Positions 1 to 17,693 of a stretch of DNA of 64,000 nt are shown piece by piece. Position numbers and translations under genes: made by a program. Positions within the stretch are counted from its first letter, which is position 1. The number at the start of each line of letters is the position of its first letter. Under the pieces are notes generated by a model. The model searched no databases and had not been told where the DNA came from. It saw only the letters and a list, made by a program, of their open reading frames with translations. This DNA is from a virus (taxonomy: Duplodnaviria > Heunggongvirae > Uroviricota > Caudoviricetes): the IMG/VR virus record IMGVR_UViG_3300028591_000006, positions 1-64,000 of that record, one strand, 5' to 3'.

Positions 1-177
1 ATAAGCATATTTATATACATAATCAGGAAGTGAGAAGTATTATTACGAACATCTTTTGTAACTTCATTCCACAACTTATATTGTTTTTCTATAGCGAGTT
101 TAGAACAAGCATTATCAGGGTCAGATAATTTGACAAGTTCTTCTAATTTTTCAAACAATTCATCATCACTCATAGTT

Positions 178-537
178 CTAAAATCCCTTAGTTACTGATA
201 CAGTATCGAGAGTTCCGACAAACAAAATATGAATATCGTCAAAGATAATATTCAGGCTGTGGTCATAAAACTCTTTTCCTGTATGTTCGTGATAATATTC
301 CCATGAAACAAACTTGATGAAGTTACCCTTTGGGAATTCAAACCTATTACCTTTTCCGGGAAGAAAATGATAATCACCCTTTATCATATTTGCAAAGATA
401 AACGAAAGGTCTAGTGCATGGTCCATTCCGTATGGTGTAATGTAGATTACGTTCTTACCTTTCTTTACGAGTTTTAATGCCCGTTTAAGGCAGCGAGTTG
501 TCTTTCCTTTACGTCTATTCAGTTCAATCTTTTTCAT
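178..537 (-). CDS. hypothetical protein (119 aa) with a P-loop-like GKTT motif
   Basis: ORF in the dominant minus-strand array; RRKGKTTRCLK motif near the N-terminus. Confidence 0.4.
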   Translation of the reverse strand: MKKIELNRRKGKTTRCLKRALKLVKKGKNVIYITPYGMDHALDLSFIFANMIKGDYHFLPGKGNRFEFPKGNFIKFVSWEYYHEHTGKEFYDHSLNIIFDDIHILFVGTLDTVSVTKGF

Positions 538-982
538 TATCTTTAATTACCTCTTTAAGTGTACCATGGTCTAATGAAGTTGATAACGTTTGCAAACAAT
601 CTTTCCAATCTTTCGAACAGACATATTCATGGTCTCTGAATTTACTACTGATATTATTAAGTTTGTCTATAATATAATCTACAGTATCTTTTGCCTTACT
701 GAACAAATCATCTTCTCTAAGATAATTACTGAGCCATTCTTCAGCTTCTTTCCGACTGTTGAAACCTGTCTTTAATGGTGGCCTACTTCTTGAATACATG
801 TCTTCCTGTGGTTCTACCTGATAGCGAGGACCAAACTGGTTATAATCAAACGCATTATCGAGAACAGAATACTTCGGCATAACCCACCATTTGGTTTCCT
901 TATTCTCTTCTTCCATAGTGTGAATGAACTCATTAAGTTTACTGATTTGTTCATCTGTCAAATTACTTGTATCGATTTCCAT
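524..982 (-). CDS. hypothetical protein (152 aa)
   Basis: Minus-strand ORF with an SD (gagaaggagat) upstream of the ATG at 982. Confidence 0.45.
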   Translation of the reverse strand: MEIDTSNLTDEQISKLNEFIHTMEEENKETKWWVMPKYSVLDNAFDYNQFGPRYQVEPQEDMYSRSRPPLKTGFNSRKEAEEWLSNYLREDDLFSKAKDTVDYIIDKLNNISSKFRDHEYVCSKDWKDCLQTLSTSLDHGTLKEVIKDNEKD

Positions 983-986
983 AGTT

Positions 987-1412
987 TTATCTCCTTCTCA
1001 ACTTTTCATATACTTCGTTACTGATGTTAGTTATTGTGCTTTTAAGATAATCATCAGGATAACCACTAAGATGTTGAACATTGTCGTATACACTATCCAT
1101 AATCTTAAGAATGTTATCTGACGTAATAGCAGGAGCACCGCACCCACGATTAATAATAGACAGAACATAAATTATAATGATATCTTTGAGAAGTGTATCA
1201 ACAGCATTGAAATTCTTCTCAAGTTCCTCATACTTAGTCTTCAGTTCGTTGTATTCTCTAGTAGTCTTATTACCTGTATTCTTGGCAAGGTTATTGATAG
1301 CATCTATGATTGGTTTATTATTTTCCCTAAGTGCATTATTAATATGATGCCCAAGATTGTCTATAAGGGTATCCTGATAGCTCATTTCATTCCTCCCGTT
1401 CAAATAATACAA
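987..1412 (-). CDS. hypothetical protein (141 aa)
   Basis: Minus-strand ORF with an SD (gggagga) upstream. Confidence 0.45.
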   Translation of the reverse strand: MYYLNGRNEMSYQDTLIDNLGHHINNALRENNKPIIDAINNLAKNTGNKTTREYNELKTKYEELEKNFNAVDTLLKDIIIIYVLSIINRGCGAPAITSDNILKIMDSVYDNVQHLSGYPDDYLKSTITNISNEVYEKLRRR

Positions 1413-1647
1413 TCACATAATCTGTTGGCATAGTATCTCCATTTCTTACAGTGACAGGAGTAATTGATACTATTCTCCAGCCCTGATTAAGCATAGAATT
1501 GATAGCCGGTGTTACATCATAGGTACTGCCATAAGCAGTATAATCTTTAAGAACCTGGTAAGACCTAACACATTGAACAGTCTTGGCAAATACCGGACTA
1601 ATAAACATTAACAGCATTAATACAATCATTAACTTCTTCATACACAC
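1387..1647 (-). CDS. small secreted protein with an N-terminal signal peptide
   Basis: N-terminus MCMKKLMIVLMLLMFISPVFA-KT has the form of a cleavable signal peptide. Confidence 0.45.
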   Translation of the reverse strand: MCMKKLMIVLMLLMFISPVFAKTVQCVRSYQVLKDYTAYGSTYDVTPAINSMLNQGWRIVSITPVTVRNGDTMPTDYVIVLFEREE

Positions 1648-1862
1648 TCCTTACTCTTACAAATCTTTTTGAATGGAATACAATCCTTTGGTAAACATTC
1701 ATAACCACAATAAATACATCTTATATTTTTACTCTTGGGAATTTTAGCCATTGGCCAATGATAATAACATTTAGGGCATCGAAGATTTGAATCAATTGTA
1801 CTAGTCTTTCTCATATACTTCTTTCTCCATGAGTATGGCAAGTTTATGTAATCGTTTCTCAA
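1638..1862 (-). CDS. Cys-rich zinc-ribbon protein (74 aa)
   Basis: CPKC...CIYCGYEC...C motifs. Confidence 0.4.
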   Translation of the reverse strand: MRNDYINLPYSWRKKYMRKTSTIDSNLRCPKCYYHWPMAKIPKSKNIRCIYCGYECLPKDCIPFKKICKSKECV

Positions 1863-2307
1863 TCTGTTTATACAGTCTGTGTATTTTAGGATTTTTGAAA
1901 CAATTCATATAATCACTTTCAGCTCCAAGTGTCATAAAATTAACTTTATCAAACAGTGCTTTCTTGCGTTTGTGCTCTTTATCCTTACCGTCTTCAATAA
2001 CTTTATCAAGATTATCTACAAAGCCATAATTCTTAGTCACACCTTCTCTATAGGTTCTGTCTTTCTGTTGCTCAAAAAACCATTCAGTACCACTCTTACC
2101 ATACTGACTGTAAACGATGTTTCTTTCCGTATTAGCGAGATAATTTTCAATATCAAAATCACTACACGTAAAACGGTCTGTGGAATGTCTGAAGATAATC
2201 TCAATACGGTCATCTTCATACCGATGGTAAAGAATATCAGTACCTGGAAGAATAATCATTTCATGATTATCAAGGTCTGTAATGTCAATTGTACTAATTA
2301 CTATCAT
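1801..2307 (-). CDS. hypothetical protein (168 aa)
   Basis: Minus-strand ORF. Confidence 0.4.
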   Translation of the reverse strand: MIVISTIDITDLDNHEMIILPGTDILYHRYEDDRIEIIFRHSTDRFTCSDFDIENYLANTERNIVYSQYGKSGTEWFFEQQKDRTYREGVTKNYGFVDNLDKVIEDGKDKEHKRKKALFDKVNFMTLGAESDYMNCFKNPKIHRLYKQIEKRLHKLAILMEKEVYEKD

Positions 2308-2310
2308 AAT

Positions 2311-2931
2311 TTACTCCTTATTCTTACTTTCACAAAGCATTTCAAGATATCTGTTCCGTACATCAGTAATCTTATTTGCAATTTCAACATCACCGTTATA
2401 GCGTTCCTGATTGCCATATTCCATTAAAGCATTTTGAATAATATCTTCATCACTTGCGGCAAGAACAGTGAGACGTTCGTATTCTTTCTGCTTTACCGCA
2501 ATCTGATGACTAAGCCAATTTGCTACAGATTTATCAAACAATGGTTTACCTGGTGTATTGTAGTTTTTCTTTTCCATTTTCTTCAGATAGTTCAGGATTG
2601 CACATGTATTAACACGCTTAATGTAGTTAGCTTCGTCCTGTTCTTCCGGACTATATTCACCCTTTTCGTGAAGTTCCTTAATACGTTCTGAAGAGATTCT
2701 AAGGTCGTTATACTCAACTTCCCTTAAATTCTTTTCTACATCACCAACATTAGGTCCGGATAAAACAAAATCTTTATCCTTACTATGAACTGTAAGATTG
2801 ATATGACTAACAAGGTCTTTTTTACCCTTACGGATATTATACGAAACGAGTACACCTTCACCAATATGGATTGGTACTGTACTACCGAATGCAGCAAAGT
2901 CAAACGGTTCTTTTACGATATATCTTCCCAT
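2311..2931 (-). CDS. hypothetical protein (206 aa)
   Basis: ORF preceded by the TTCTATAATTAAG promoter motif and an SD (aggag). Confidence 0.5.
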   Translation of the reverse strand: MGRYIVKEPFDFAAFGSTVPIHIGEGVLVSYNIRKGKKDLVSHINLTVHSKDKDFVLSGPNVGDVEKNLREVEYNDLRISSERIKELHEKGEYSPEEQDEANYIKRVNTCAILNYLKKMEKKNYNTPGKPLFDKSVANWLSHQIAVKQKEYERLTVLAASDEDIIQNALMEYGNQERYNGDVEIANKITDVRNRYLEMLCESKNKE

Positions 2932-2947
2932 AATTATTGCTCCTAAC

Positions 2948-2959
2948 TTAATTATAGAA
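2948..2959 (-). promoter_or_regulatory. phage promoter motif (TTCTATAATTAA, -10 only) upstream of 2311..2931
   Basis: Member of the repeated motif family described below. Confidence 0.5.
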
Positions 2960-2974
2960 TTATTTTATTTTCTG

Positions 2975-4306
2975 TTATATCCAAAGTGCTCCACGAAGAT
3001 TCTCTCTGCTGCGGAACTCAAGTTTAGCACCGTCCTGTTTGAATCCGTCCTGTTCAAATACAATGAAGTATTTCGTATTATAGATTGCTACCAGGATTGC
3101 AACATGACCATATTTATTTGTCTTGGAAGAATCCCAAATAAGGATATCTCCCTTGTCGTAATCTGCGGTAGGACTATCAACAGTCTTTTTGAGATTGGTA
3201 CACTTATCAAAAATATCCTTAGCTCCACCTTCTGCTCCTAATGCAGGGAATTGGTCTACACCAAGTACATCATGCACATACTGTCTCGCCAGGTCTACAC
3301 AATTATGAACCTTATAGTTATTACAAATATAAGTATGTGTATTGTCAGTTTCGAAATTATAAACCTCAGCTTTGAAAGTCTCGCTTATTTTCACCCTTTT
3401 GTTCATACGTTTTGTAGATTTACAAAGAGACAATCTATAAATTGGTTTTACAGATTTCACTTGTTTACCTCGAATAAAAATAGGTTCCGAACTTCTTTTC
3501 GAGATACGAATAGATTTATTTACATAACCCAACTTGATAGCAATTGCCTGTAAGCTATAAATTAAAGAAGGACTCGTGTTCATTAGTACAATCGTATTTC
3601 CTTTTTTATATCCATCAGCCTCAATAAACCCGTTAAGAATCAACTCAGATTCTCGATTACTAAAAATTAGAGGTAATTTTTTATATTCTCCTCGACATTG
3701 TTCGAGAATGATTTTAGTAAGCAAGGGATGCTCACGTTTAGAAATTGCTCCAACAAAAGCATGTTCAGATTCATGATGTGGTCTTTCAGAAGAGAGCATG
3801 TTGAGAGAATGTACAAAATCAACTTTCTTTTCTCCAAAAGTTAATCTTATTTCATCTGTTTTATTATCTTTATGTCTACCAATATTTCCATCTCCTAACC
3901 AGAATCCTAAAAATAAAAGTTCATTATCAGTAAGACCTGTCTCATCAAAACACTCCTTATCATAAAGAGATGCTAGTTTTGTTTTCAATTCTACTGCCGG
4001 AGAAAATGTTCCATCTTTGAAATAGAATGGGTGGTCAGGAGTTACGCAAAAATCACAAAGAGGTGTTCTAATGTTTACAACCTCTTTAATACTCTTGAAT
4101 GTTTTAGTAACTGTATTAACTTCATTATCATATCCGATTACTTTATCTCCAACAACAATATCCTGAATTGGTTTATAAGTCCAGTCAGCCATAAGAATCA
4201 TATGGTTTTTAGTGAAACACTGAAAACTCTTGTCACCTTTGAATACATCATCTTTATAATCAACCTTTTTACCTTTGTAAGTTTTAATAAACTCAGTTAG
4301 ATTCAT
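2975..4306 (-). CDS. CHAP-domain peptidoglycan hydrolase (endolysin-like) interrupted by a HINT+LAGLIDADG intein
   Basis: The extein is about 137 aa: MNLTEF...GDKSFQ | CVDLARQYVHDV...GHVAILVAIYN, which matches CHAP motifs Q-C-V-D and a downstream His. The intein spans residues 30-335: CFTKNHMILMAD...VGDKV (block A), CVTPDHPF (block B), LLFLGFWLGDGN and ELILNGFIEADGY (two LAGLIDADG motifs), and it ends ...YKVHN|C. Confidence 0.8.
   Translation of the reverse strand: MNLTEFIKTYKGKKVDYKDDVFKGDKSFQCFTKNHMILMADWTYKPIQDIVVGDKVIGYDNEVNTVTKTFKSIKEVVNIRTPLCDFCVTPDHPFYFKDGTFSPAVELKTKLASLYDKECFDETGLTDNELLFLGFWLGDGNIGRHKDNKTDEIRLTFGEKKVDFVHSLNMLSSERPHHESEHAFVGAISKREHPLLTKIILEQCRGEYKKLPLIFSNRESELILNGFIEADGYKKGNTIVLMNTSPSLIYSLQAIAIKLGYVNKSIRISKRSSEPIFIRGKQVKSVKPIYRLSLCKSTKRMNKRVKISETFKAEVYNFETDNTHTYICNNYKVHNCVDLARQYVHDVLGVDQFPALGAEGGAKDIFDKCTNLKKTVDSPTADYDKGDILIWDSSKTNKYGHVAILVAIYNTKYFIVFEQDGFKQDGAKLEFRSRENLRGALWI
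3302..4219 (-). mobile_element. intein (HINT splicing domain plus LAGLIDADG homing endonuclease) at the catalytic Cys of the CHAP domain
   Basis: Begins with Cys (TGT at 4219-4217) and ends HN (3307-3302), followed by the +1 Cys (3301-3299), which is the CHAP active-site Cys. Confidence 0.75.
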
Positions 4307-4710
4307 TCTTGTACCTCATTTACAACCTTATTTAGGAACTCATTGTATTCTGATTCATTTATCTCAGATACAATAACCTGTCCATTAATAACATTCTCAG
4401 CTACAATAAGAAAACCACTTTTAAGAATAATGTACTGATTCCACTTATCACCATCATAATGTATAATCAACTTTGGTATTTCCAAACGATTATCCACATA
4501 CTTACAGTTCTCATACTTGAAATAACCGGTACATTTCACACCATCGCCATTATCTTCATCAAACCTGTAATACTTACCTTTCTTAAGGTTGATGATTTCC
4601 TTGGCGTGTTTGAATGCAAGTTCAGCCTGTTTCTTATTCAGCTTCTCGTCCTGTTCCTTTAATGATTTTCTTTTAAGATTAATCTTTTCAATTTCGTCCT
4701 TATACTCCAT
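4303..4710 (-). CDS. hypothetical protein (135 aa)
   Basis: Minus-strand ORF. Confidence 0.4.
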   Translation of the reverse strand: MEYKDEIEKINLKRKSLKEQDEKLNKKQAELAFKHAKEIINLKKGKYYRFDEDNGDGVKCTGYFKYENCKYVDNRLEIPKLIIHYDGDKWNQYIILKSGFLIVAENVINGQVIVSEINESEYNEFLNKVVNEVQE

Positions 4711-5011
4711 ATATTCTCCCTTTAATTACAATTTCTATATCTCTCTTGGCACAACAACCAAGTATTTTATATTCCCCATAAGAATAAACGTTATACAGTC
4801 CATGAAGGAACCAATTAGAATAGATTGGAAAAAGCGAATAACGCTTTGTTCGATTATCATACAGTACAACGCAGGTCATGTCTTTGTATTTAACAATGTC
4901 ACCTACCTGTATCTGCTGCCCATGCTTATCGAAATACATTGTCCATGTACTAATAGGATAATATATGTTTGTATAAATTGTGTTGTACAATCGTTTTAAT
5001 TTTTTAATCAT
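4700..5011 (-). CDS. hypothetical protein (103 aa)
   Basis: Minus-strand ORF. Confidence 0.4.
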   Translation of the reverse strand: MIKKLKRLYNTIYTNIYYPISTWTMYFDKHGQQIQVGDIVKYKDMTCVVLYDNRTKRYSLFPIYSNWFLHGLYNVYSYGEYKILGCCAKRDIEIVIKGRIYGV

Positions 5012-5130
5012 TCAAATAGTCTCCTAAGCAAATCTTTTATTACATTTATTAATATTAGAACGGAGAAGGTTAGTGCTGGTGCACAGAATACAACATAGAT
5101 GATTATGTAGATTATGTCCTTGACTGTCAT

Positions 5131-5538
5131 TTATTCAGTCTCCTTTGGAAGTACAATTTCTTTCCAAGCATAAACAGAATCTATATTCTGCATTACACAA
5201 GATTTTTCATTAAAGATTTCAAACTGATTACTTCTGTAATAACCTATCAATGCTTGAACTCCATTTATAGTTTTTCTTGCGAGTAAAAGCATTGCACTTT
5301 CAGACGGAAGTTCATCTTTCACATAATGCCATTCATTATCCACAATCTGATTTACCTTTTCATTTGATTTCACACCAAACTCAAAGCCCTTGTTATAGCC
5401 GAACTCAGCACCTTTCTGCCATTTTTCTTTAGAACATTCCTTACAGGTACAATGTTCCCTACTTTTACATTTTTCATATCTTGAGCAATCTTTACAAACA
5501 CTGTCTATCACCCATTCTTCTGCTTCTTTCTCAAACAT
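5131..5538 (-). CDS. MFEKE-family protein, paralog 1 (135 aa)
   Basis: Shares MFEKEAEEW, KGAEFGYN, EWHYVKDELP and VYAWKEIVLP blocks with 37414..37821 and 38173..38508. Start uses the GGAGTAACTATG junction module. Confidence 0.6.
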   Translation of the reverse strand: MFEKEAEEWVIDSVCKDCSRYEKCKSREHCTCKECSKEKWQKGAEFGYNKGFEFGVKSNEKVNQIVDNEWHYVKDELPSESAMLLLARKTINGVQALIGYYRSNQFEIFNEKSCVMQNIDSVYAWKEIVLPKETE

Positions 5539-5540
5539 AG

Positions 5541-5708
5541 TTACTCCTTTTTAATACACCAATGCCTTCTTTCTAACTTTTTAAGTTCACCGTCATCACA
5601 CTCAATATAAACTGCATAATGCCTTTCGATTTTTATTACTTTTCCAACAAGTTCACTTTTGTCCCAATGATTTATGCATCGAACTCTATCACCAACTTCA
5701 TAATCCAT
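5541..5708 (-). CDS. small protein (55 aa, MDYEVGDRVRCINHWDK...HWCIKKE), not in the ORF track
   Basis: Hand-translated from ATG 5708-5706. Preceded by GGAGTAACT, and its TAA stop lies inside the GGAGTAACTATG module of the downstream gene. Confidence 0.4.
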   Translation of the reverse strand: MDYEVGDRVRCINHWDKSELVGKVIKIERHYAVYIECDDGELKKLERRHWCIKKE

Positions 5709-5710
5709 AG

Positions 5711-5992
5711 TTACTCCCATTTGATTGTTAATTTGTCATAATAAAAAATACCAGAGAATGTAAATTCTCCCCTTTCCAATTCACACTTAAAACCTTTTGC
5801 TTCTAATTTCTTTGAAACTAACCACAAGGCAAAGTAATCGTATAATTTACAACTTCTTTCTATCACACAATAATTGCTTGTTGCATTTTTAATTTTATGT
5901 TTTGCAACATCCATTAAAAACCAAAACTTTTCTCTAGTTTCTCGTTTCCAATTTTTTCTTGTACGTTTTCGCAGTTTTTCAATTTCTGTCAT
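5711..5992 (-). CDS. hypothetical protein (93 aa)
   Basis: Start uses the GGAGTAACTATG module, coupled to the upstream stop at 5995. Confidence 0.45.
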   Translation of the reverse strand: MTEIEKLRKRTRKNWKRETREKFWFLMDVAKHKIKNATSNYCVIERSCKLYDYFALWLVSKKLEAKGFKCELERGEFTFSGIFYYDKLTIKWE

Positions 5993-5994
5993 AG

Positions 5995-6186
5995 TTACTC
6001 CTTCTTTACAAAATCGACTAAATACCTACAGCCAAATTGTGAACACCCTTTACTTCGATTACACTCTGCACACTTGTGAGTATGTTCATAACAACAATCT
6101 TCACAATTCTGCCAAATATCAACATTACAGTTAACGCAGTCTCTTTTTAGTTTTCTTCCGTCTTTTGTATTATTGCAATAAACCAT
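5995..6186 (-). CDS. Cys-rich small protein (63 aa)
   Basis: Ten Cys residues (CVNCNV...CEDCCYEHTHKCAECN...CSQFGC). Confidence 0.4.
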   Translation of the reverse strand: MVYCNNTKDGRKLKRDCVNCNVDIWQNCEDCCYEHTHKCAECNRSKGCSQFGCRYLVDFVKKE

Positions 6187-6274
6187 AGTTATTCTAATTA
6201 CTCCTTTATTTTAGTTTCCGCCTTAAAAGTAAAATAACAGGTTTTCTAATTTCATTTTTCCACCTTTTCGGTTT

Positions 6275-6535
6275 TTATTCATTCTCCAACTCACTTAACG
6301 TTTCTACCATTGTTCTCAATGCTTTAACTAGATTATTAGGATATTTTTTCTTATAAGTGCAATAACTTATAAATGAAACACCTTTAAGATGCAGTCTCCA
6401 CTCAACAAAATCCTTAGCGTCTTTTCTTGAAATATGATTCACACTTGAAGTCATATCAATTAAACGCTCTTTCAGTTTCATTTTCTTTTCAAATCGTGTT
6501 TGTATTTTGTGATGCTTTCTCCTGTTCATTTGCAC
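6275..6535 (-). CDS. hypothetical protein (86 aa)
   Basis: Minus-strand ORF. Confidence 0.35.
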   Translation of the reverse strand: MQMNRRKHHKIQTRFEKKMKLKERLIDMTSSVNHISRKDAKDFVEWRLHLKGVSFISYCTYKKKYPNNLVKALRTMVETLSELENE

Positions 6536-7194
6536 TCCTGTAAGAATTGCTCTGCTTGTTGTTTAATTTCTTCGTAAGCAAGATTAAAAAACGAAGAAGG
6601 TTCTCCGTCTTCATCTTTCCCATAAATTGTTCTTGGAGTTGTTAACAATCTTTCAATAAGTTTCTTTGCTTTGGTGAGTTGTTCGTCTTTATCAAACACC
6701 ATATTTCTGTATTTATCCCTTTCTTCTTCAAGTGCCTTATTCAGTGAATTAAGACCCTTGTTCAAAATTGAACCTACCGCAAGACCTTCTTTGAGTTTCT
6801 TGTTTTCAAAGTGTCTGTTCATATTGCTAGACTGTTGGAACTCTGTAATCTTTCTAAGTTCTGCGTTTTCCTTTTCAAGTTCCTTGTTAATCATAATGTT
6901 ATGGTCTTTAAGGTTGGCAGTCTTGCACCATAAATCCGCCTTGTCTTTCCATTCTTTTACTTCTGCTTCAAGTTCTGCAATCCGCTTTTCTCTTGGCTCT
7001 GCTCCTGCAAGATAGTATTGCTTGATGTTTGCTAAATCGTAGCAGTCTTCTTTACCTGGACAACGTTCTGGATTACCACAATGTGCACATTGCTCACGTT
7101 CAGCATATTCAAAGGCTTCTTTTTCAAGTTCTTCTTTATTCATTCTTCTTCTACCTCCCTTGAAGTTATAAAAACCTGTTCTCCTCTTAGCCAA
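6526..7194 (-). CDS. hypothetical coiled-coil protein with an N-terminal Cys cluster (222 aa)
   Basis: CAHCGNPERCPGKEDC followed by a long charged helical region. Confidence 0.45.
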   Translation of the reverse strand: MAKRRTGFYNFKGGRRRMNKEELEKEAFEYAEREQCAHCGNPERCPGKEDCYDLANIKQYYLAGAEPREKRIAELEAEVKEWKDKADLWCKTANLKDHNIMINKELEKENAELRKITEFQQSSNMNRHFENKKLKEGLAVGSILNKGLNSLNKALEEERDKYRNMVFDKDEQLTKAKKLIERLLTTPRTIYGKDEDGEPSSFFNLAYEEIKQQAEQFLQECK

Positions 7195-7508
7195 TTTTTA
7201 TATCGGTCTTTCTTCTTCTGTTCGACATTTACCTTACAGTAACAATCTGCACATATATCGAAATAAGTCATTGTATTATATGAAACAAACCTTCTAATGG
7301 TTGTATTCGTACAGTTTTCACCACACCATTTACATTTTGGAATAAAGAATATTTTCCCTTTCTTTTTCTTATATCCATTAAGATAATAACCGATAAGATT
7401 ATCAAACATTCTATTTCTCCTTAATATAATCATTGAAGTGTTTCTGTATCTCTGATTCTTCGTAACTGAAAGCAAACAAGTCATAACCCATAAATTCACG
7501 CTTATCAA
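7140..7508 (-). CDS. zinc-ribbon protein (122 aa)
   Basis: CKWCGENC...CADCYC motifs. Confidence 0.4.
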   Translation of the reverse strand: MISVNLWVMTCLLSVTKNQRYRNTSMIILRRNRMFDNLIGYYLNGYKKKKGKIFFIPKCKWCGENCTNTTIRRFVSYNTMTYFDICADCYCKVNVEQKKKDRYKNWLRGEQVFITSREVEEE

Positions 7509-8405
7509 TCATCTCAATATTTCCTCTTTCTTACCAATAATAGAACCATCCAAGAAAGTGAAATTATCGAAAAGCTCTTTTAATTTAAGATTCTCGTAAC
7601 CGGTACCTACATCACAATCATAATAATCACGCTCAAAGAAAAAGTCGATAATGAGATGTACACTATTACATTCCTTATTCTTTATCCAGATAAGCGGCAT
7701 GAGTAATTCATGATTAAACTCAAGACCACTCTTCTTTTTCCAAGCATCAATTAATTCCTGTACTGAATTGAACGGAACATATTCAACCTCATCTTTAATT
7801 CGCCATTCCTTCCATTTGTCAAAAGCACTTGCACGAGGAATTTCAATGAGATGCCAATCTATCCATTCATCACCTTCTTTATACTGAATTGTCTTACCCT
7901 GTTTCCAGGCAAGCATTATCTTTTCAAATGATTTGTAGTTGTCATACCACTTAATACATTCATCTTCGGTACCTTTGAATACAACATACCTATCATTCTT
8001 TGAGTTAGTGCGGGAAAGTCCATAGTCATCAAGAACAATATACCAGGTTGTTTCAGGTTTGATACGATATTCGTCTGTAGTGAATAATGGTGCAAACCCT
8101 TCTAATACATCTTCCCAATCACCATTATGATTTTTGAACTGTAGCTGCTTACCTTCAAGATATGCTTTACGGAACTCATAGTATGGGTCGTAATATGCAA
8201 ACTGATAATCACAAGTTATTTCTCCATCGTCATAATAAGTGAATGGACAAACATCATCACCACTGCTAGATAACGTTACCATAGCTTCAGGATTATCTTT
8301 TACCTGACGTCTTAATGATGCAATATCCTGTGCAACAAATCCTTTCTTATCTTCAAGTATTTTATCCCATTCAAAATAAACGAATTTCTTATTATACAAT
8401 TCCAT
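7509..8405 (-). CDS. hypothetical protein (298 aa)
   Basis: Minus-strand ORF. Confidence 0.5.
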   Translation of the reverse strand: MELYNKKFVYFEWDKILEDKKGFVAQDIASLRRQVKDNPEAMVTLSSSGDDVCPFTYYDDGEITCDYQFAYYDPYYEFRKAYLEGKQLQFKNHNGDWEDVLEGFAPLFTTDEYRIKPETTWYIVLDDYGLSRTNSKNDRYVVFKGTEDECIKWYDNYKSFEKIMLAWKQGKTIQYKEGDEWIDWHLIEIPRASAFDKWKEWRIKDEVEYVPFNSVQELIDAWKKKSGLEFNHELLMPLIWIKNKECNSVHLIIDFFFERDYYDCDVGTGYENLKLKELFDNFTFLDGSIIGKKEEILR

Positions 8406-8586
8406 AACTATTCCTCCACAATCATCTTCTTTAATTCTTCATAGCATTTATCACATAATCCAAAGTTCTTATTCATTTTTGTGTTTTCATAGTCATAACG
8501 GTGAATTGTGATAAATCTTCCTTTACCTGTTTTCCCACATACATAACATGGCTGTATTGTTATATTTTTAATTATTTTCATAATTT

Positions 8587-8799
8587 TTACTCATTCGCAT
8601 AAAGTGTCTTGTTGATGAACTCAATAAGCTGCTCTTTAGACATAATCTGTAAAGCAACATCCAATTTTGATTTTACGTCATCTGCTTTTACACTTTCAGA
8701 ATGAAGTTTTTCTTCAAGCTCCCAAATCTCAGGTTTCATAGCAAGAGCTTCTTCCTGTGTATAAACATGTGGTTTTTTCTTAATTACATCTGGATTCAT
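8587..8799 (-). CDS. hypothetical protein (70 aa)
   Basis: Minus-strand ORF. Confidence 0.35.
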   Translation of the reverse strand: MNPDVIKKKPHVYTQEEALAMKPEIWELEEKLHSESVKADDVKSKLDVALQIMSKEQLIEFINKTLYANE

Positions 8800-8846
8800 A
8801 ATTTTACTCCTTTCCTTAATACTAGAAAGTTGCGTCTCCCCAGATT

Positions 8847-9044
8847 TTATTCTTTCGTTTCTGCACCAATCTCTATTTTATCACCAATCTTCACATGAAA
8901 ATTCTTGAAGGTCTTACGGATAATTCTCATTACAAGTGCAAGAACAATACATAGCAGTATGGCAGCTCCAACAATAAATGCAACATCACTTCCCGTAATC
9001 TCATCATCATATTCAGATGGTACTTCTTCATAATATTCTTCCAT
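8847..9044 (-). CDS. small membrane protein (65 aa, one TM helix)
   Basis: Acidic N-terminus followed by the hydrophobic stretch VAFIVGAAILLCIVLALVM. Confidence 0.4.
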   Translation of the reverse strand: MEEYYEEVPSEYDDEITGSDVAFIVGAAILLCIVLALVMRIIRKTFKNFHVKIGDKIEIGAETKE

Positions 9045-9156
9045 ACGCTATTCTCCTATTCTTCGAGATTTCGAAACATTATCTTAAGGACTATAAGTAT
9101 TACCGGAATCGCAATAACGAATCCGGTAATAAAACCAATTATAAACATCTTCATGA

Positions 9157-9432
9157 TTAATATGCGAAAGTAAAACTCTTTTTCTGGTCTTTCACTGCAC
9201 CAGTAAACAATACAATACGGATACCTTCATAACTCCAGGAATCAGGAATAATGTTTGATGTATCCTTGAACTCCTTCATACGTTCTTTCCATTCTTTTTT
9301 CGGAACATGTGTACTCACTTCGAGTTCTACACGATTATCTCCACATTGTCTGATACGTGCCTCATCACAAAACAGCTGATACAATCTACTCTTCAGTTCT
9401 TCCATCTTTATCTCCCGGCAATTTAAGTGCAT
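9157..9432 (-). CDS. hypothetical protein (91 aa)
   Basis: Minus-strand ORF. Confidence 0.35.
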   Translation of the reverse strand: MHLNCREIKMEELKSRLYQLFCDEARIRQCGDNRVELEVSTHVPKKEWKERMKEFKDTSNIIPDSWSYEGIRIVLFTGAVKDQKKSFTFAY

Positions 9433-9640
9433 TTACGACGACATTATGTCCGCAGAAAGGACAGCTGCGGAATATATCAATGATTGACATCTTATATTTC
9501 TTTGCAACCTTAAATATATTCACACCGTTCGAACTGTTTTTCAGGCAGCTTGGAATATAGACATTTCCCTTGCCGTTTTCCTTTTCGGTCCATACACAGC
9601 AGACCATTCTCTGCTCAGTCATATCTTTTGGTTTGTTCAT
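9386..9640 (-). CDS. zinc-finger protein (84 aa)
   Basis: CCVW...C...CPFCGH motifs. Confidence 0.35.
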   Translation of the reverse strand: MNKPKDMTEQRMVCCVWTEKENGKGNVYIPSCLKNSSNGVNIFKVAKKYKMSIIDIFRSCPFCGHNVVVNALKLPGDKDGRTEE

Positions 9641-9754
9641 AATTACATACTCCCATATAATAACGACAGATATTCATCTTCCAATATAGAAAGGTGATTA
9701 CCGTCAATCATTTCAAGTTCTTCATCACTGTAGCCGATGTTATTCAGCCACATC

Positions 9755-9940
9755 TTAAATTCCTTTACGTGCATAGCTGTAGTCCTCATTGATATAATAT
9801 TTACCAAGGGCAAGTTTTTCATTTTCCTTACTGGCTCTTACCCTTTTCAGCACATTAATATCCGGTTTATCAAGATGTACCAGATACCGTCTTCCTTCGT
9901 CAGGAATCTCAATAATTTCCATTGTTCCTATAGTTTTCAT
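9755..9940 (-). CDS. small protein (62 aa); probable true start MKTIGTMEII
   Basis: ATG at 9940. The TATAAT box at 9956-9945 lies 7 nt upstream, suggesting a leaderless start. The longer track ORF reads through the promoter. Confidence 0.35.
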   Translation of the reverse strand: MKTIGTMEIIEIPDEGRRYLVHLDKPDINVLKRVRASKENEKLALGKYYINEDYSYARKGI

Positions 9941-9944
9941 ACTT

Positions 9945-9956
9945 TTAATTATAGAA
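9945..9956 (-). promoter_or_regulatory. phage promoter motif (-10 TATAAT), 7 nt before ATG 9940
   Basis: TTCTATAATTAAAAGT-ATG. Confidence 0.45.
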
Positions 9957-9968
9957 AACTGACAGGAC

Positions 9969-10045
9969 AAAAAAAACCCTACAGTATAGTTTAGGAGTAA
10001 TACTGTAGGGTTGCAAATTATGAATCATGAAATTATTCATTTGTT
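9969..10045 (-). ncRNA. candidate small RNA 1 (about 77 nt): promoter c, then hairpin, then U-tract
   Basis: A -10 box (TATAAT, 10058-10063 on the minus strand) lies upstream. The 13-bp perfect hairpin aaccctacagtat/atactgtagggtt (9975-10012) has minus-strand loop UACUCCUAAACU and is followed by U8 (plus-strand A-run 9969-9976). Confidence 0.45.
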
Positions 10046-10051
10046 TCTAAC

Positions 10052-10079
10052 TTAATTATAGAAACTCTGATTTTCTCAG
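10052..10079 (-). promoter_or_regulatory. phage promoter c (CTGAGAAA-N-TTCTATAATTAA)
   Basis: Full bipartite motif; 13 nt between CTGAGA and TATAAT. Confidence 0.55.
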
Positions 10080-10164
10080 AAAAAAAGAAGGGTTATCTGA
10101 CCGGGTGGGAGGGAAAAGGTCAGATAACCCAAAACCTTCAGGAGGTGCCAAAATGTCAAGGCAT
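10080..10164 (-). ncRNA. candidate small RNA 2 (about 85 nt): promoter d, then single-stranded CACCUCCU, then 13-bp hairpin, then U-tract
   Basis: Promoter motif at 10171-10198. The minus-strand transcript contains GGCACCUCCUGAAGG (10149-10135). The hairpin gggttatctgacc/ggtcagataaccc (10090-10130) is followed by U7 (plus-strand A-run 10080-10086). Confidence 0.45.
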
Positions 10165-10170
10165 CATAAT

Positions 10171-10198
10171 TTAATTATAGAAAGGAATGTATTCTCAG
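10171..10198 (-). promoter_or_regulatory. phage promoter d (CTGAGAAT-N-TTCTATAATTAA)
   Basis: Full bipartite motif. Confidence 0.55.
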
Positions 10199-10203
10199 TC
10201 AAT

Positions 10204-10260
10204 AAAAAAGACCCTACAGTATGTAGGAGTATACCATAGGGTCAAAGAGTTTATAATGAC
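10204..10260 (-). ncRNA. candidate small RNA 3 (about 57 nt): promoter e, then hairpin, then U-tract; paralog of sRNA 1
   Basis: Promoter motif at 10267-10301. The hairpin gaccctacagtat/ataccatagggtc (10210-10243, two internal mismatches) has minus-strand loop ACUCCUAC and is followed by U6. Confidence 0.4.
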
Positions 10261-10266
10261 TAGTAT

Positions 10267-10301
10267 CTTAATAATAGAATGTGCCTTTATTTCGCTCTCA
10301 G
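10267..10301 (-). promoter_or_regulatory. phage promoter e (variant: CTGAGAGC...TTCTATTATTAAG)
   Basis: Variant of the motif, immediately downstream of the terL stop. Confidence 0.4.
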
Positions 10302-10377
10302 ATTGCGTATAACACGTTCTACAGGCTCTGGTAATGATATTTGTCGATTGAGTGCATTTGAACGCAATACAGAGCCT

Positions 10378-12234
10378 CTATGGCTCAAATGGAGCATATT
10401 TATCATCAAGTCCATATAGGTCATTTTGGAACAACGCTATCTCATCTTCAACATCATCTTCAGTTCCGGTTATATCTATCGAACTGTAAAATCCGTCGTC
10501 CGGTATGCTCATCTTTTCCGTTTCCTTTTCGATAAGCATTTCCTCATAATGTACATGTTCATTCACATATATCAACTGAGTTGCTGCAGCGAAACAGTCC
10601 GAACAGTCCTTGAAATATACAGGATGATTAGGGTCAGTATTATGCGGATGGTCTACCTTTCCGGTCGCACGGTCATATAAAAGATTAGACAATTCGTATT
10701 CAAGCTGCTTATAGTACGGAATACTGTAACGCTTAAGTTTCATGAAGTTCAGTGTTGTAAGGTATGCTGCTGGAGTTACATCAACCGAATAATAATCTGA
10801 ATACTCATTACCGAATATCTTCTTGCATTGCGGAATAAGATAATCCTTTGCATATCTATCACCACTTATGAACTTAAAATTTACACCATTATCCCTCATA
10901 TAAAGAATCAGTTGCAGTATCTTTTCCTGGTCTATCTGATTGTCGTTTATCTCTTCATTAAGGAATAATGATGCGGTCAGTAATGAACGGATTTTGTTTT
11001 CTTCACGGTCATAATATAAAGCTGAGAATCCTGTATGGTCATGTTTCTGCGATGCATCTATATGCAGATATACGTTCTCTCCATGGTAATGTTCCATGGC
11101 TCTGTCAGCATTCCAGATAAGGAAAGGACTGTTCTGGTCATATATACCAATCTCAGGTATCTCGGTCAGTAACGGAGACTTCTCGTCATTCCATAAGTTC
11201 TTTATGATACTGCTATTATTGATAAACTTGTTCGTTCCCGTCTGTACCTTACCGGACATATTAGCAAGGGAGAATGAAATGTCTTCTTCATAGAATTTAC
11301 GGATGGATACCGGCACAGGCTCAATAAGGTTCGGATGGTCTTCTACGAACTGGTCAAGAGTCTGTCCGTAAGTATCCGCTATCTGAGTCTTTATCGCACT
11401 ATCAGCCTGGTCAATAATAAAAGGTGCTATTGTTCCATTACCTATAAATACATTGAACTTTTCCTTACTGTACTGCTCAGGGTTAGCCTCATATACGGAT
11501 GCTTCCATAATGGCTGTATCACCATCTTTCTTTGCCTTTTCAAGTTCAATTGCTACAAATGAAGATGATGTAGTTGAAGATGAGATAATGCCGCTGAATC
11601 CGCCCCATATACCGTTCTTACTGAATGTCATTACTGAACGCTGACGCATTTCCTGGAACATCTTCTGTGTTTCTTCTACTTCAGTTCCTTTGGCTACCTT
11701 TCGTACATTCGCCTCATCCAATACACACCCGAGCATATCTTCACCGACAATATGTTCAACCTGAGAACCAGGAAGTATCTCGCAGAAAGGAAATATAAGT
11801 TCAGTTTCAACATCCTTACGTTTCAAACCTGGCAACTGCCAATATGGAACGCTATCAATATCTTTTATAAGCTGCTTGAGACCGGTTGACTTTGATTTAC
11901 TAAGAGTATATGACAGCCAGAATATCTTTGGTGTTGTATTAGGGTCAAGTCCGAACAGACAGGGAAAGTTCTTCCAGCAGCTCATTTCATATAGGATACG
12001 CTGAATGAGTTTACGGGCACCATATGACTTTCCAGTACGTGATGCTCCGGTTGCTATGAACTTTCTCTTTGGTACTGTAAGACCCATCTCGTTTACATAG
12101 GTCGCATTGTTGAATTCCTCTATGAACTCCCTTACATACGGTCGGATATAGTTTGCCGAAGGTCCGACATAAAAGGGGTCTTGTATCCAGTCGGATATCG
12201 GCACAATCTCTCGAATTTGTTCCGCACGAGTCAT
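10378..12234 (-). CDS. terL: terminase large subunit
   Basis: Walker A (KRKFIATGASRTGKS), Walker B-like (VLDEAN), and a C-terminal nuclease-type region (VYLHIDASQKHDHTGFSALYYD). 618 aa, comparable to T4 gp17. SD aaggaga upstream. Confidence 0.7.
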   Translation of the reverse strand: MTRAEQIREIVPISDWIQDPFYVGPSANYIRPYVREFIEEFNNATYVNEMGLTVPKRKFIATGASRTGKSYGARKLIQRILYEMSCWKNFPCLFGLDPNTTPKIFWLSYTLSKSKSTGLKQLIKDIDSVPYWQLPGLKRKDVETELIFPFCEILPGSQVEHIVGEDMLGCVLDEANVRKVAKGTEVEETQKMFQEMRQRSVMTFSKNGIWGGFSGIISSSTTSSSFVAIELEKAKKDGDTAIMEASVYEANPEQYSKEKFNVFIGNGTIAPFIIDQADSAIKTQIADTYGQTLDQFVEDHPNLIEPVPVSIRKFYEEDISFSLANMSGKVQTGTNKFINNSSIIKNLWNDEKSPLLTEIPEIGIYDQNSPFLIWNADRAMEHYHGENVYLHIDASQKHDHTGFSALYYDREENKIRSLLTASLFLNEEINDNQIDQEKILQLILYMRDNGVNFKFISGDRYAKDYLIPQCKKIFGNEYSDYYSVDVTPAAYLTTLNFMKLKRYSIPYYKQLEYELSNLLYDRATGKVDHPHNTDPNHPVYFKDCSDCFAAATQLIYVNEHVHYEEMLIEKETEKMSIPDDGFYSSIDITGTEDDVEDEIALFQNDLYGLDDKYAPFEP

Positions 12235-12236
12235 AA

Positions 12237-12695
12237 TTATTTCTCCTTTCTTAATTCCTTTTTGTAATCACATATATCCTTGCCATCATTGATTTCAACC
12301 ATACGGTCTAATATACGTTTCAGACGTTTGAGTACATCTTTATCCTTTCGATAATATCCATACAAATAATGAACAAGGTCATGAGTTGTTCCATTCAGAG
12401 GAACGAACCTATCTTTCTTCAGGATTATATACTCTGAGGGATTTAAGCACATATGATGAAGATTGAATCTCTTTGGTAATTTCTTTAATGTAATAGGGTC
12501 CACCTGACCTTTGAAGAAATTACGGAACTCTTTCCAAATAGTAGTTTCACGGAACTTAGATTTCTCCTGCTGGTTAAGGGCTTTACCTTTACAAGATTCA
12601 ATAAAGTCCTGTTCCCTTTTCAGTTTTTCTTTTTTCTGTTCTGCACGTGTCAATTTGTGTTTACTCCTTATAAAATATATAAAAGTCCTTGACAT
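12237..12695 (-). CDS. HNH-motif endonuclease-like protein adjacent to terL
   Basis: NLHHMCLNPSEY...NGTTHDLVH resembles an HNH motif. Position immediately upstream of terL. Confidence 0.4.
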   Translation of the reverse strand: MSRTFIYFIRSKHKLTRAEQKKEKLKREQDFIESCKGKALNQQEKSKFRETTIWKEFRNFFKGQVDPITLKKLPKRFNLHHMCLNPSEYIILKKDRFVPLNGTTHDLVHYLYGYYRKDKDVLKRLKRILDRMVEINDGKDICDYKKELRKEK

Positions 12696-12750
12696 ATTTT
12701 AGTATCTGTTATAATATTTACTAAAGTATTTTAGTATCTGTTACGATAAT
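12689..12750 (+). promoter_or_regulatory. sigma70-type promoter for the plus-strand cassette, with a duplicated 17-mer operator-like element
   Basis: TTGACA (12689-12694), 15-nt spacer, then TGTTATAAT with the TATAAT hexamer at 12710-12715. TATTTTAGTATCTGTTA occurs twice, at 12695-12711 and 12727-12743. Confidence 0.6.
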
Positions 12751-12826
12751 AAAAGTATGTCGGATATCCGGTCATAAAGGGAAGTATGACCGAATTTGAA
12801 ATATTTATAATAATAGGTGGGAAATT

Positions 12827-13012
12827 ATGTATTATCTTCTTTTAATTGCTTTAATGCTCAGTGCCGGTTTGTTTGTATTCTTTACAGACAAAAGTCTTCA
12901 GTTTCGAAAGGTAAAAGAACTTCATAAGTCAAATATTGCATTTAATCTCAGCATGATTAGTGGAATAATTGGTGTTCTTATGATTCTTATACTTATTTTT
13001 GTAGGAGAATAA
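12827..13012 (+). CDS. small membrane protein (61 aa); plus-strand early cassette gene 1
   Basis: Two hydrophobic helices. Lies downstream of a sigma70-type promoter. Confidence 0.45.
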   Translation: MYYLLLIALMLSAGLFVFFTDKSLQFRKVKELHKSNIAFNLSMISGIIGVLMILILIFVGE

Positions 13013-13015
13013 ATT

Positions 13016-13261: not shown

Positions 13262-13290
13262 TTATATATTACTGTAAGGAGGAATTTCTT

Positions 13291-13530: not shown

Positions 13531-13537
13531 GTACAGA

Positions 13538-13572
13538 CCCGTAACCTTTATGGTTGCGGGTTTTCTGTTTCA
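13538..13572 (+). terminator. intrinsic terminator after the plus-strand cassette (possibly bidirectional)
   Basis: 10-bp stem acccgtaacc/ggttgcgggt (one G·U) with loop TTTAT, followed by TTTTCTGTTTC. Confidence 0.5.
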
Positions 13573-17690: not shown

Positions 17691-17693
17691 ATT

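Follow-up and report, generated by a model that had tools for sequence, protein, structure and literature searches.

A probable selfish LAGLIDADG intein inserted at the catalytic cysteine codon of a phage CHAP gene

The interrupted CHAP gene

The window, by which we mean the whole 64,000-nt stretch of viral DNA analysed, carries on its minus strand a gene that an earlier note had read as a 137-aa CHAP extein split after GDKSFQ by a 306-aa intein. The gene and its parts are as follows.

2975..4306, minus strand: precursor gene, 443 aa, 50.8 kDa, comprising N-extein, intein and C-extein (ORF listing and re-translation)
4220..4306, minus strand: N-extein, aa 1-29, MNLTEFIKTYKGKKVDYKDDVFKGDKSFQ, ending ...GDKSFQ; first helix and loop of CHAP
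3302..4219, minus strand: intein, aa 30-335, 306 aa, 35.2 kDa, CFTKNHMIL...NNYKVHN
4217-4219 and 3302-3307, minus strand: codons of the intein termini, Cys1 (TGT) and His-Asn (re-translation)
4181..4219, minus strand: block A with the Cys1 nucleophile, CFTKNHMILMADW; Cys1 is Cys30 of the precursor
4019..4048, minus strand: block B, TxxH, CVTPDHPFYF (T89-P-D-H92)
3881..3919, minus strand: LAGLIDADG motif 1, LLFLGFWLGDGNI, with LGFWLGD139G; fold matches I-DmoI
3605..3643, minus strand: LAGLIDADG motif 2, LILNGFIEADGYK, with GFIEAD231G; Pfam LAGLIDADG_3
3299..3367, minus strand: blocks F and G plus the +1 Cys codon, EVYNFETDNTHTYICN NYKVHN; H334, N335, C336
3299..3301, minus strand: +1 Cys codon, aa 336, followed directly by VDLARQY
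2975..3301, minus strand: C-extein, 108 aa and stop codon; the catalytic helix begins at Cys336
3104-3106, 3053-3055 and 3047-3049, minus strand: catalytic residues His401, Glu418 and Asp420 of the C-extein

The precursor is one uninterrupted ORF with an ATG start in the ORF listing; this start codon overlaps the stop codon of the upstream gene (ATGA), and a GAGG lies about 10 nt upstream. Re-translation recovered the terminal Asn (N335) and the +1 Cys (C336), on whose presence the earlier note had staked its claim beforehand, and both boundaries were confirmed by re-translation and by the intein-less alleles described below. Ligation of the exteins in silico yields the junction GDKSFQ|CVDLARQYVHDV (junction peptide ...GDKSFQCVDLAR) and a spliced CHAP protein of 137 aa with a predicted mass of 15.6 kDa. 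The identical precursor protein is also present on ENA contig ERZ27256846 k141_664856.

The +1 cysteine aligns with the CHAP catalytic cysteine

Similarity to CHAP persists once the intein is removed: against the Pfam CHAP model (PF05257, gathering score 26), the precursor reached 34.1 bits and the extein spliced in silico 36.0. PHROG endolysin and amidase families likewise scored higher with the spliced extein than with the precursor, and the spliced extein aligned to solved CHAP endolysins across the junction. When a profile of the intein-less homologues was used, its positions 23-114 aligned to residues 47-136 of LysK CHAPK, placing Cys30 on CHAPK Cys54 and Glu112 on CHAPK Glu134. C30, H95, E112 and D114 were invariant in 41 intein-less homologues. 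The CHAPK triad has been described, and the exchange C54A abolishes CHAPK activity (PMC4126393); the +1 Cys is accordingly identified as the CHAP nucleophile.

The AF2 model of the intein-less homologue P0046 (90% identical; pLDDT 94.1) has a helix at 3-10 and a second one at 30-42 that begins at Cys30. It matched CHAPK, LysGH15, Ly7917, PlyPy and LysIME-EF1 with TM-scores of 0.64-0.74 on query length. Profile score, catalytic residues and a papain-like predicted fold thus all agree with a CHAP domain, and the gene product is best explained as a single-domain, 137-aa CHAP protein with predicted peptidoglycan peptidase or amidase activity.

Related phages carry the gene without the intein

Searches returned 930 extein homologues in total, the best 120 of which were up to 95% identical and all 127-148 aa long, and therefore intein-less. 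The ligated junction was present in all 11 intein-less homologues inspected, reading exactly GDKSFQCVDLARQYVHDV in P0046 and showing small substitutions in P0044 and the other alleles inspected. The N-extein differs from the N-termini of the intein-less P0046 and P0044 by one and four substitutions, respectively. At the DNA level, the syntenic related phage contig L002 lacks exactly the 918 nt of window 3302..4219: window 5159..4218 aligns to L002 1033..1971 and window 3301..2338 to L002 1970..2929, with 77-87% identity in the flanks. Its empty site reads GATGTATTCAAGGGTGACAAGAGTTTTCAG|TGCGTAGACCTTGCAAGACAGTATGTACAT. Comparison with intein-less alleles of related phages, which the earlier note had proposed as a check, therefore revealed precisely the predicted junction. 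This confirms, beyond chance, that the intein is a clean 918-nt in-frame insertion. Judged from the sequences, the intein is sporadically distributed: many extein homologues, the syntenic L002 among them, do without it, as is typical of a selfish element.

Splicing motifs, predicted fold and endonuclease

Blocks A, B and G and both LAGLIDADG motifs had been described as intact, and this holds for Cys1, TxxH, His-Asn, Asp139 and Asp231. Judged by eye, position 4 of block F is presumably Asn instead of the common Asp of the consensus. A class-3 intein was considered and discarded by eye, given the presence of Cys1 and of Asn, not Cys, at this position; the yardstick was the W-C-T signature of class 3.

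Pfam LAGLIDADG_3 covers aa 223-274 with 25.0 bits (gathering score 22.5). All Hint-type models remained under their gathering scores (Hom_end_hint 29.2 versus 32.1), with matches confined to the first 50-80 intein residues, the N-terminal splicing region. The Pfam alignment suggested in the earlier note was thus successful for CHAP and LAGLIDADG_3 but not for Hint. Searching the PDB with the intein sequence gave only marginal matches (2lwy at 0.003, PI-SceI at 0.005), so that a comparison of folds was needed. With the AF2 model of the precursor (pLDDT 87.7), Foldseek retrieved PI-SceI at E 1e-14 (1ef0, 1vde and 1jva, 1e-14 to 1e-12), PI-PfuI at 1e-8 (1dq3) and I-DmoI at 6e-6 (TM-score about 0.6 on target length); CHAPK and I-Tsp061I were also matched. 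Since the Pfam Hint models stayed under their gathering scores, the case for a Hint fold comes mainly from this structure prediction. Empty alleles, Cys1, TxxH, His-Asn, the +1 Cys and a predicted Hint fold, the hallmarks of a class-1 intein, were all found. Likewise, the two motifs, their acidic residues and the predicted fold agree with a monomeric two-motif LAGLIDADG endonuclease.

A family of inteins at the same site

Besides the window copy, 70 further diverged precursors with a [Q/E]|[C/S/A]...N|C site were collected, giving 71 inteins. The terminal Asn (71/71) and the +1 Cys were demanded by the selection filter and hence are not independent evidence of conservation. All 71 are 283-342 aa long with full-length endonuclease domains, and no mini-intein was among them. 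Position 1 is Cys in 64; block B has His in all 71, with Thr in 64 and Ser in 7; the acidic residue of LAGLIDADG motif 1 is Asp in 70 and Glu in one, that of motif 2 Asp in 70; and the penultimate His occurs in 69. Conservation was 63% in the endonuclease region and 63% in the N-terminal Hint region. In some of the other precursors of this family, the exteins are fused to GH25, Amidase_2, CW_7, LysM or SH3 domains.

Much more likely than the conditional splicing discussed below is that the CHAP Q|C codon is a widespread hotspot for inteins that has not been described before and would be the first known in an enzyme of the cell wall or of lysis; the roughly 70 diverged cluster representatives extend over lysins of many architectures. 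On this reading, a single site has received class-1 inteins as well as variants with Ala1 or Ser1, and it bears homing scars of natural origin.

Selection and mobility

Comparison of the window with L001, an intein-bearing relative, gave pN values of 0.16-0.25 and pS values of 0.74-0.85, with 0.25 versus 0.74 in the endonuclease region; as synonymous sites are saturated, dN/dS is unusable and only the contrast of pN with pS is informative. This contrast shows purifying selection. When L001 was compared to the syntenic, intein-less L017, homology ended at the insertion site and resumed 5 nt beyond it; the recombination breakpoint is no more than 1 nt away from the site, and an orphan N-extein ORF has been left behind. 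This looks like a natural homing scar produced by one-sided repair, so that the pair would show the locus before and after an apparent homing event. Taken with the sporadic distribution and the purifying selection, the breakpoint is indirect evidence that the endonuclease may cleave intein-less alleles site-specifically. L006 had been tried as syntenic partner of L001 and was rejected, having only the CHAP gene in common; L017 is the right comparison.

For the window copy itself, the closest database intein is only about 70% identical; no near-identical intein was found in another genome, and no sign of recent transfer was seen. Sliding identity against L002 showed no co-conversion tract, with no dip at the junction and 85-95% identity within 120 nt on each side. 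Megablast with window 1-20000 found no near-identical DNA in known phages, and tblastn against known phages gave no more than methyltransferase genes with distantly related inteins and endolysins of Arthrobacter phages that matched CHAP.

A proposed splicing and homing cycle

Altogether, these data make it probable that a selfish, most likely active class-1 LAGLIDADG homing intein has invaded a 137-aa CHAP gene. The intein separates Gln29 from the catalytic Cys at the point where the catalytic helix has its N-terminal cap. The 50.8-kDa precursor would therefore be unable to form the Cys-His-Glu active site, and we infer that CHAP activity requires splicing. Splicing would take the standard four steps: Cys1 undergoes an N-S acyl shift, trans-thioesterification passes the chain to the +1 Cys, the terminal Asn cyclises, and an S-N shift completes the reaction. 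This would release a 35-kDa intein-endonuclease and the 15.6-kDa CHAP enzyme. The splice-site Cys of the precursor would thereby become the active-site nucleophile of the enzyme. When phages with and without the intein infect one cell, the intein-less allele would be cleaved by the endonuclease at ...AGTTTTCAG|TGYGTAGACC..., and repair would copy the intein into it. Residence in an invariant catalytic codon may shield the intein from imprecise deletion.

The earlier note had further proposed that lysis timing depends on splicing. This stands only in the trivial sense that activity needs splicing; no sign of regulation was seen, and as most relatives do without the intein, control of lysis timing is unsupported. 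If splicing is constitutive, as is likely, the effect on lysis biology would be small.

Genomic context and alternative explanations

The host is probably a ruminant-gut Treponema. In the window, the CHAP gene comes after the replication module and is surrounded by small genes for uncharacterised soluble proteins. No holin gene adjoins it there, the nearest TM ORF (5008-5130) being two genes off. PHROGs gave two weak matches for the 10 genes around it, both to families of unknown function, and Pfam found no match for seven of the ten large window ORFs scanned. This setting, together with the lack of a wall-binding domain, would suit an enzyme that remodels the wall early or in an auxiliary role, or an amidase whose substrate is not the wall, and Foldseek of the P0046 model also retrieved glutathionylspermidine amidase CHAP domains, although with weaker scores. 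However, CHAP domains of phage endolysins, along with PHROG lysis families, match it best in sequence and fold, and some other same-site precursors are fused to the domains listed above (GH25 to SH3). Moreover, orthologues with 70-82% identity occupy lysis-cassette positions in other phages: in L001 and L017 a holin-like 76-aa membrane protein is encoded directly upstream of the CHAP gene, and in L006 this gene closes the late operon, preceded by genes for three small TM proteins. A role other than that of an endolysin is possible but doubtful. The designation "CHAP endolysin" is thus confirmed as to CHAP, while the endolysin part, to which the holin-less neighbourhood in the window lends no help, is assigned from relatives and by homology only.

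As for the insertion itself, a group I intron with a LAGLIDADG ORF has a precedent in lysin genes of S. thermophilus phages, which PMC3952083 mentions as targets. Here, the ORF runs on in frame across both junctions, where Cys1 and His-Asn-Cys are in place, and a scan of 2000..5500 for Rfam introns at E up to 1 gave nothing beyond a chance snoRNA match. The predicted embedding of the endonuclease in a Hint fold, as in PI-SceI, speaks against both an intron and a non-intein Hint (BIL) domain, and we know of no BIL domain with an endonuclease or with empty-site alleles. Either origin is hardly credible. Decay of the element, with splicing kept but the endonuclease dead, or with the whole element dead and the gene a pseudogene, passed on by vertical descent only, would accord with the best match elsewhere being only about 70% identical and with the lack of a visible co-conversion tract against L002. 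It is nevertheless unlikely, as both catalytic Asp and all splicing residues are intact, pN in the endonuclease region is low against saturated pS, the ORF is uninterrupted and mini-inteins are absent from the family. More than a parasite, the intein could be a regulatory element whose conditional splicing, responsive to redox, metal or temperature, serves as a timer or safety catch until late infection. With the intein at the catalytic Cys, the precursor is bound to be inactive, and as both splice-junction residues are Cys, a disulfide trap between Cys1 and Cys+1 is conceivable, such as some other inteins reportedly form; the site has also been maintained in about 70 diverged lineages. Against this, closely related phages lack the intein (L002; L017 versus L001), as do the best 120 of the 930 extein homologues, implying that it is dispensable. 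Furthermore, a full endonuclease in every same-site intein is the signature of a selfish element, not of a domesticated switch, and a redox trap is less plausible in the likely hosts, anaerobic rumen Treponema. We consider regulatory splicing quite unlikely, and a holin-independent post-translational catch or timer on endolysin activation would be similarly improbable. The selfish homing intein remains the reading that we prefer.

Comparison with known systems

Inteins have mostly been described in proteins of replication, repair, nucleotide metabolism and packaging. The mechanism of this one looks standard, and its host protein would extend the range of inteins to a lysis or cell-wall enzyme in which one Cys would act first as splice nucleophile and later as enzyme nucleophile. 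As a compact natural intein that would keep a lysin inactive until splicing, it might be developed into lysins that activate themselves or do so only under certain conditions, and the empty-site sequence may represent a new target for LAGLIDADG endonucleases.

The best structural matches to the precursor model, PI-SceI (the S. cerevisiae VMA1 intein) and PI-PfuI, share with it Cys1, TxxH, His-Asn and the +1 Cys, as well as a Hint fold that is interrupted by the endonuclease, at only 14-18% sequence identity. The intein described here is smaller (306 versus 454 aa) and, judged from its size, presumably has no extra DNA-recognition region; it resides in a cell-wall hydrolase, whereas PI-SceI and PI-PfuI reside in a V-ATPase or a ribonucleotide reductase. 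Its nearest relatives in annotated phage records are inteins of C5-cytosine DNA methyltransferases, with 22-27% identity over 69-84% of the query, in dmt/methyltransferase genes of Escherichia phage RCS47 and Mannheimia phage vB_MhS_587AP2; metagenomic examples are P0237, P0253, P0266 and P0300. These follow the same logic (G-x-P|C...HN|C, Hint plus LAGLIDADG), with a +1 Cys that we take to be the catalytic nucleophile of the PC motif, but in another extein family and at another insertion site, at about 25-28% identity.

On the enzyme side, the extein has the fold of the CHAP endolysins LysK CHAPK (4csh), LysGH15 (4olk), LysIME-EF1 (6ist), PlyPy (5udm) and Ly7917 (5d74) and their Q-C...G-H...E-x-D/N catalytic arrangement. 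It differs from them in sequence (about 20% identity) and in being a single 137-aa domain without a wall-binding module, and none of these solved enzymes has an intein. Full-text literature, with most subscription journals outside its coverage, contained no previous account of an intein within a CHAP domain, an endolysin or any other lysin.

Inteins of mycobacteriophages and actinophages are, as here, phage-borne, sporadic and located at active-site motifs; their hosts include TerL, DnaB, nucleotidyltransferase, methyltransferase and others, with no lysin among them (Kelley et al. 2016, PMC5050341). Concordantly, none of 224 mycobacteriophage Lysin A genes surveyed was interrupted by an intron or intein (PMC3314691). 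A parallel in lysin genes is provided by the group I introns with homing endonucleases of S. thermophilus phages (Foley et al. 2000, as cited in PMC3952083), which are likewise sporadic homing elements. Those introns are removed from the RNA, whereas the intein described here would be removed at the protein level, from a precursor predicted to be catalytically dead until splicing.

An intein interrupts a CHAP peptidase gene

Window positions 2975..4306 on the minus strand form one uninterrupted 443-aa reading frame in the ORF listing. Its ATG shares bases with the stop codon of the preceding gene (ATGA), and about 10 nt before the start there is a GAGG. Re-translation and coordinate mapping divided the precursor into three parts:

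4220..4306, minus strand: N-extein, aa 1-29, ending GDKSFQ
3302..4219 (918 nt), minus strand: intein, aa 30-335, CFTKNHMIL...YICNNYKVHN
2975..3301 including the stop codon, minus strand: C-extein, aa 336-443, beginning CVDLARQYVHDV

Predicted masses are 50.8 kDa for the precursor, 35.2 kDa for the intein and 15.6 kDa for spliced CHAP. The claim of the earlier note that this frame is a CHAP gene carrying an intein was borne out. Splicing in silico raised the Pfam CHAP score from 34.1 bits for the precursor to 36.0 bits (gathering score 26) and LAGLIDADG_3 scored 25.0 bits (gathering score 22.5), whereas the several Hint-type models matching the first 50-80 intein residues all stayed below their gathering scores. 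PHROG lysis families (amidase, endolysin) also matched, with higher scores for the spliced protein than for the precursor. The intein is slightly more AT-rich than the exteins (GC 31.7% vs 38.2%).

A sequence search with the spliced extein returned 930 homologues, the best 120 of which were all 127-148 aa long and up to 95% identical (P0044). The ligated junction was present in 11/11 intein-less homologues inspected at sequence level, in P0046 exactly as ...GDKSFQCVDLARQYVHDV.... P0046 lies on L002, a contig collinear with the window: L002 1033..1971 matches window 5159..4218 (87% identity) and L002 1970..2929 matches window 3301..2338 (77.5%). Since L002 aligns on both flanks, window 3302..4219 is a clean insertion, with a 2-nt alignment ambiguity because both Cys codons begin TG; the empty site reads GGTGACAAGAGTTTTCAG followed directly by TGYGTAGACCTNGCAAGACAGTATGT. 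Alignments of the spliced sequence with solved CHAP endolysins, e.g. 8h1i with FDGAYGFQCMDLAVAYVY, also run through the junction. Intein-less homologues, the syntenic empty site and solved structures thus agree independently on the boundaries, confirming the 306-aa intein between GDKSFQ and the +1 Cys as originally proposed. A reading of the insertion as a group I intron, for which Rfam gave no match in 2000..5500 at E up to 1, or as a BIL was rejected.

The +1 cysteine is predicted to be the CHAP nucleophile

In the spliced protein the +1 Cys is C30, which, like H95, E112 and D114, is invariant in 41 intein-less homologues. The profile of these homologues matches the CHAP domain of LysK (CHAPK, 4csh; positions 23-114 on residues 47-136) and puts C30 on Cys54 and E112 on Glu134. 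The triad proposed for CHAPK is Cys54-His117-Glu134, and the enzyme is inactive when either C54A or H117A is introduced (PMC4126393). An AF2 model of P0046, which is 90% identical to the spliced product, had a pLDDT of 94.1 and best matched CHAPK, Ly7917, LysGH15, PlyPy and LysIME-EF1 in the PDB (TM-scores 0.64-0.74). Judged by sequence and predicted structure, the +1 residue is therefore the catalytic Cys, as the earlier note had suggested. C30 begins helix 30-42 of the model, which places the intein at the catalytic helix's N-cap, where it cuts off the first helix and loop from the remainder of the domain.

Residues for both predicted intein activities are conserved

The AF2 model of the whole precursor (pLDDT 87.7) matched the LAGLIDADG-bearing inteins PI-SceI (E 1e-14) and PI-PfuI (1e-8) and the two-motif LAGLIDADG enzyme I-DmoI (6e-6), and its extein part matched CHAPK and LysGH15. 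Re-translation found all expected residues, so that blocks A, B and G and both LAGLIDADG motifs are intact, as had been claimed (precursor numbering, minus strand):

C30: block A, Cys1
T89/H92: block B (TPDH)
D139: LAGLIDADG motif 1 (LGFWLGDG)
D231: LAGLIDADG motif 2 (GFIEADG)
H334, N335: intein C-end, followed by +1 C336

We collected 70 further precursors with Q or E before a C, S or A at the upstream junction and N before C at the downstream one (intein identity 27-70%; n=71 with the window copy); among these 70, P0041 and P0266 are chance passes of this filter, their exteins not being CHAP. The block B His occurs in 71/71, accompanied by Thr (64) or Ser (7); each LAGLIDADG Asp is found in 70/71 and the penultimate His in 69/71, while the terminal Asn (71/71) and the +1 Cys were demanded by the filter. 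All 71 inteins span 283-342 aa, hence the set contains no mini-inteins. Conservation in the 20 closest members is 63% for the endonuclease region and likewise 63% for the N-terminal Hint region. Between the window and L001, the closest relative compared at DNA level, synonymous sites are saturated (pS 0.74-0.85) and pN is 0.16-0.25 (endonuclease region 0.25). As pN lies far under this saturated pS, the predicted splicing and endonuclease activities have both been under purifying selection.

At the same CHAP site, position 1 of the intein is Ala in P0183, P0186, P0193 and P0198 and Ser in P0207 and P0208. Splicing of the Ala1 inteins would have to take a non-canonical, class-2-like route; P0186, the sole Ala1/Ser1 protein viewed by eye, does not look like class 3, its block F position 4 not being Cys.

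A putative homing scar

For each intein-bearing allele examined, the nearest extein relative was intein-less: the window extein is 95% identical to P0044, and the C-extein of P0001 (carried by L001) is identical to that of P0065 (carried by L017) at 106/108 positions. The inteins of the window and P0001 share only about 69% identity. L001 and L017 have the same gene order (terminase, portal, 76-aa holin-like gene, CHAP) and differ here:

L001 9802-10993 vs L017 5802-6120: scar region

Homology covers the holin-like gene together with the resident N-extein of 29 aa, ends where the Cys codon begins, at its T (L001 9889, L017 6115), and restarts 5 nt inside the C-extein (L001 10999, L017 6120). 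In the 1104 nt that L001 has in addition, a 111-nt spacer bearing an RBS is followed by a second N-extein, which is 24 aa long and of a different type, and then by a 921-nt intein. The resident N-extein persists as an orphan 29-codon ORF (MTLTTFMKTYKGQNVDYKDENFKGDGSFQ, ending ...GSFQ-stop) that terminates exactly at the intein site.

The arrangement resembles a scar left in nature by homing through one-sided repair. A double-strand break at the homing site would have been repaired on the right by homologous recombination, only the +2 residue being donor-like, and on the left by non-homologous capture because the donor N-extein was too different. Read this way, recombination in nature broke no more than 1 nt from where the intein is predicted to have inserted.

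Distribution of the intein lineage

A full-precursor search found about 40 intein-bearing clusters; searching with the extein alone brought up far more intein-less ones. With just the intein as query, a full HMMER scan yielded 932 relatives, in many of which it begins at residue 25-30 of a lysin. Among 43 diverse same-site precursors, Pfam detected CHAP in 21, despite the split domain; accessory domains were GH25 (5), Amidase_2 (3), CW_7 (3), dockerin (2) and, once each, ChW, LysM, SH3 and glucosaminidase; these domain sets look like those of wall-hydrolysing lysins.

Distant relatives (P0237, P0253, P0254, P0266, P0272, P0300; phage records FO818745.1 72480-73688 and KP137435.1 27584-28606) immediately precede the Cys of the G-x-P-C motif in C5-cytosine methyltransferases, a Cys that we take to be the catalytic nucleophile; two cases are annotated, in the RCS47 phage gene dmt and in a Mannheimia phage methyltransferase. 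Others (P0200, P0242, P0295) lie in large terminases. The lineage seems to prefer sites whose +1 nucleophile is itself a catalytic Cys.

Phage and host

Every window ORF of 200 aa or more lies on the minus strand, apart from two that overlap longer ORFs of that strand. The predicted products include DNA polymerase, clamp loader, two helicases, a UvsX-like recombinase and portal. The identical 443-aa precursor occurs on L019 (ENA ERZ27256846 k141_664856, 62,470 nt), which begins 1.2 kb upstream of the gene and extends ~58 kb past window position 1, so the phage genome is probably larger than 120 kb. Treponema MAGs, several from ruminant gut samples, hold 7/8 genomic relatives of the extein, and Treponema bryantii has an annotated allele of 82% identity, making Treponema the likely host.

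Several kinds of homing elements share this phage, the intein being accompanied by free-standing GIY-YIG/NUMOD3 endonuclease genes (Seg-like, phrog_314), one of which separates the clamp-loader gene from the DNA polymerase region:

26686-27693, minus strand: GIY-YIG/NUMOD3 gene
49121-50215, minus strand: GIY-YIG/NUMOD3 gene

A single tRNA (anticodon UUG, Gln; 20338-20422, minus strand; 85-91 nt; Rfam tRNA 35.7 bits) has a long, hairpin-forming variable arm, to our knowledge not expected in Gln tRNA. GC is ~35%, and GC skew is negative in all 2-kb blocks except one. Several small Cys-rich, possibly zinc-ribbon-like ORFs with CxxC-type spacing belong to the block of functionally unassigned genes surrounding CHAP (5995-6186, 1638-1862 and 5131-5538, minus strand).

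Selfish element or lysis timer

We consider a selfish class-1 homing intein with constitutive splicing probable. The precursor is predicted to be inactive because its catalytic helix is uncapped and parted from the N-terminal segment, and splicing would convert the splice-junction Cys into the active-site Cys. To this extent the earlier proposal that the lysin acts only after splicing holds as a prediction. Its extension to control of lysis timing is unsupported: close relatives manage without the intein and every copy retains the homing endonuclease, which makes such a timer very unlikely. Decay of the endonuclease or of splicing in the window copy is scarcely more probable, given intact catalytic residues and purifying selection.

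That the CHAP protein is not the endolysin of this phage is a somewhat more serious, still unlikely, alternative. No holin was found among the genes adjoining CHAP in the window, and the endolysin label rests on homology and on the lysis-cassette positions in the compared contigs L001, L017 and L006.

Comparison with known systems

Full-text literature searches turned up no description of an intein in any endolysin or CHAP domain, a provisional result, subscription journals being mostly outside coverage. A survey covering 224 Lysin A genes of mycobacteriophages states that no intron or intein interrupts any of them (PMC3314691), and a mycobacteriophage intein survey has no lysin among its hosts (PMC5050341). 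Homing elements of lysin genes are already known in the form of group I introns (PMC3952083). The window element is mechanistically ordinary; its novelty is a new intein allele class in a new type of host protein.
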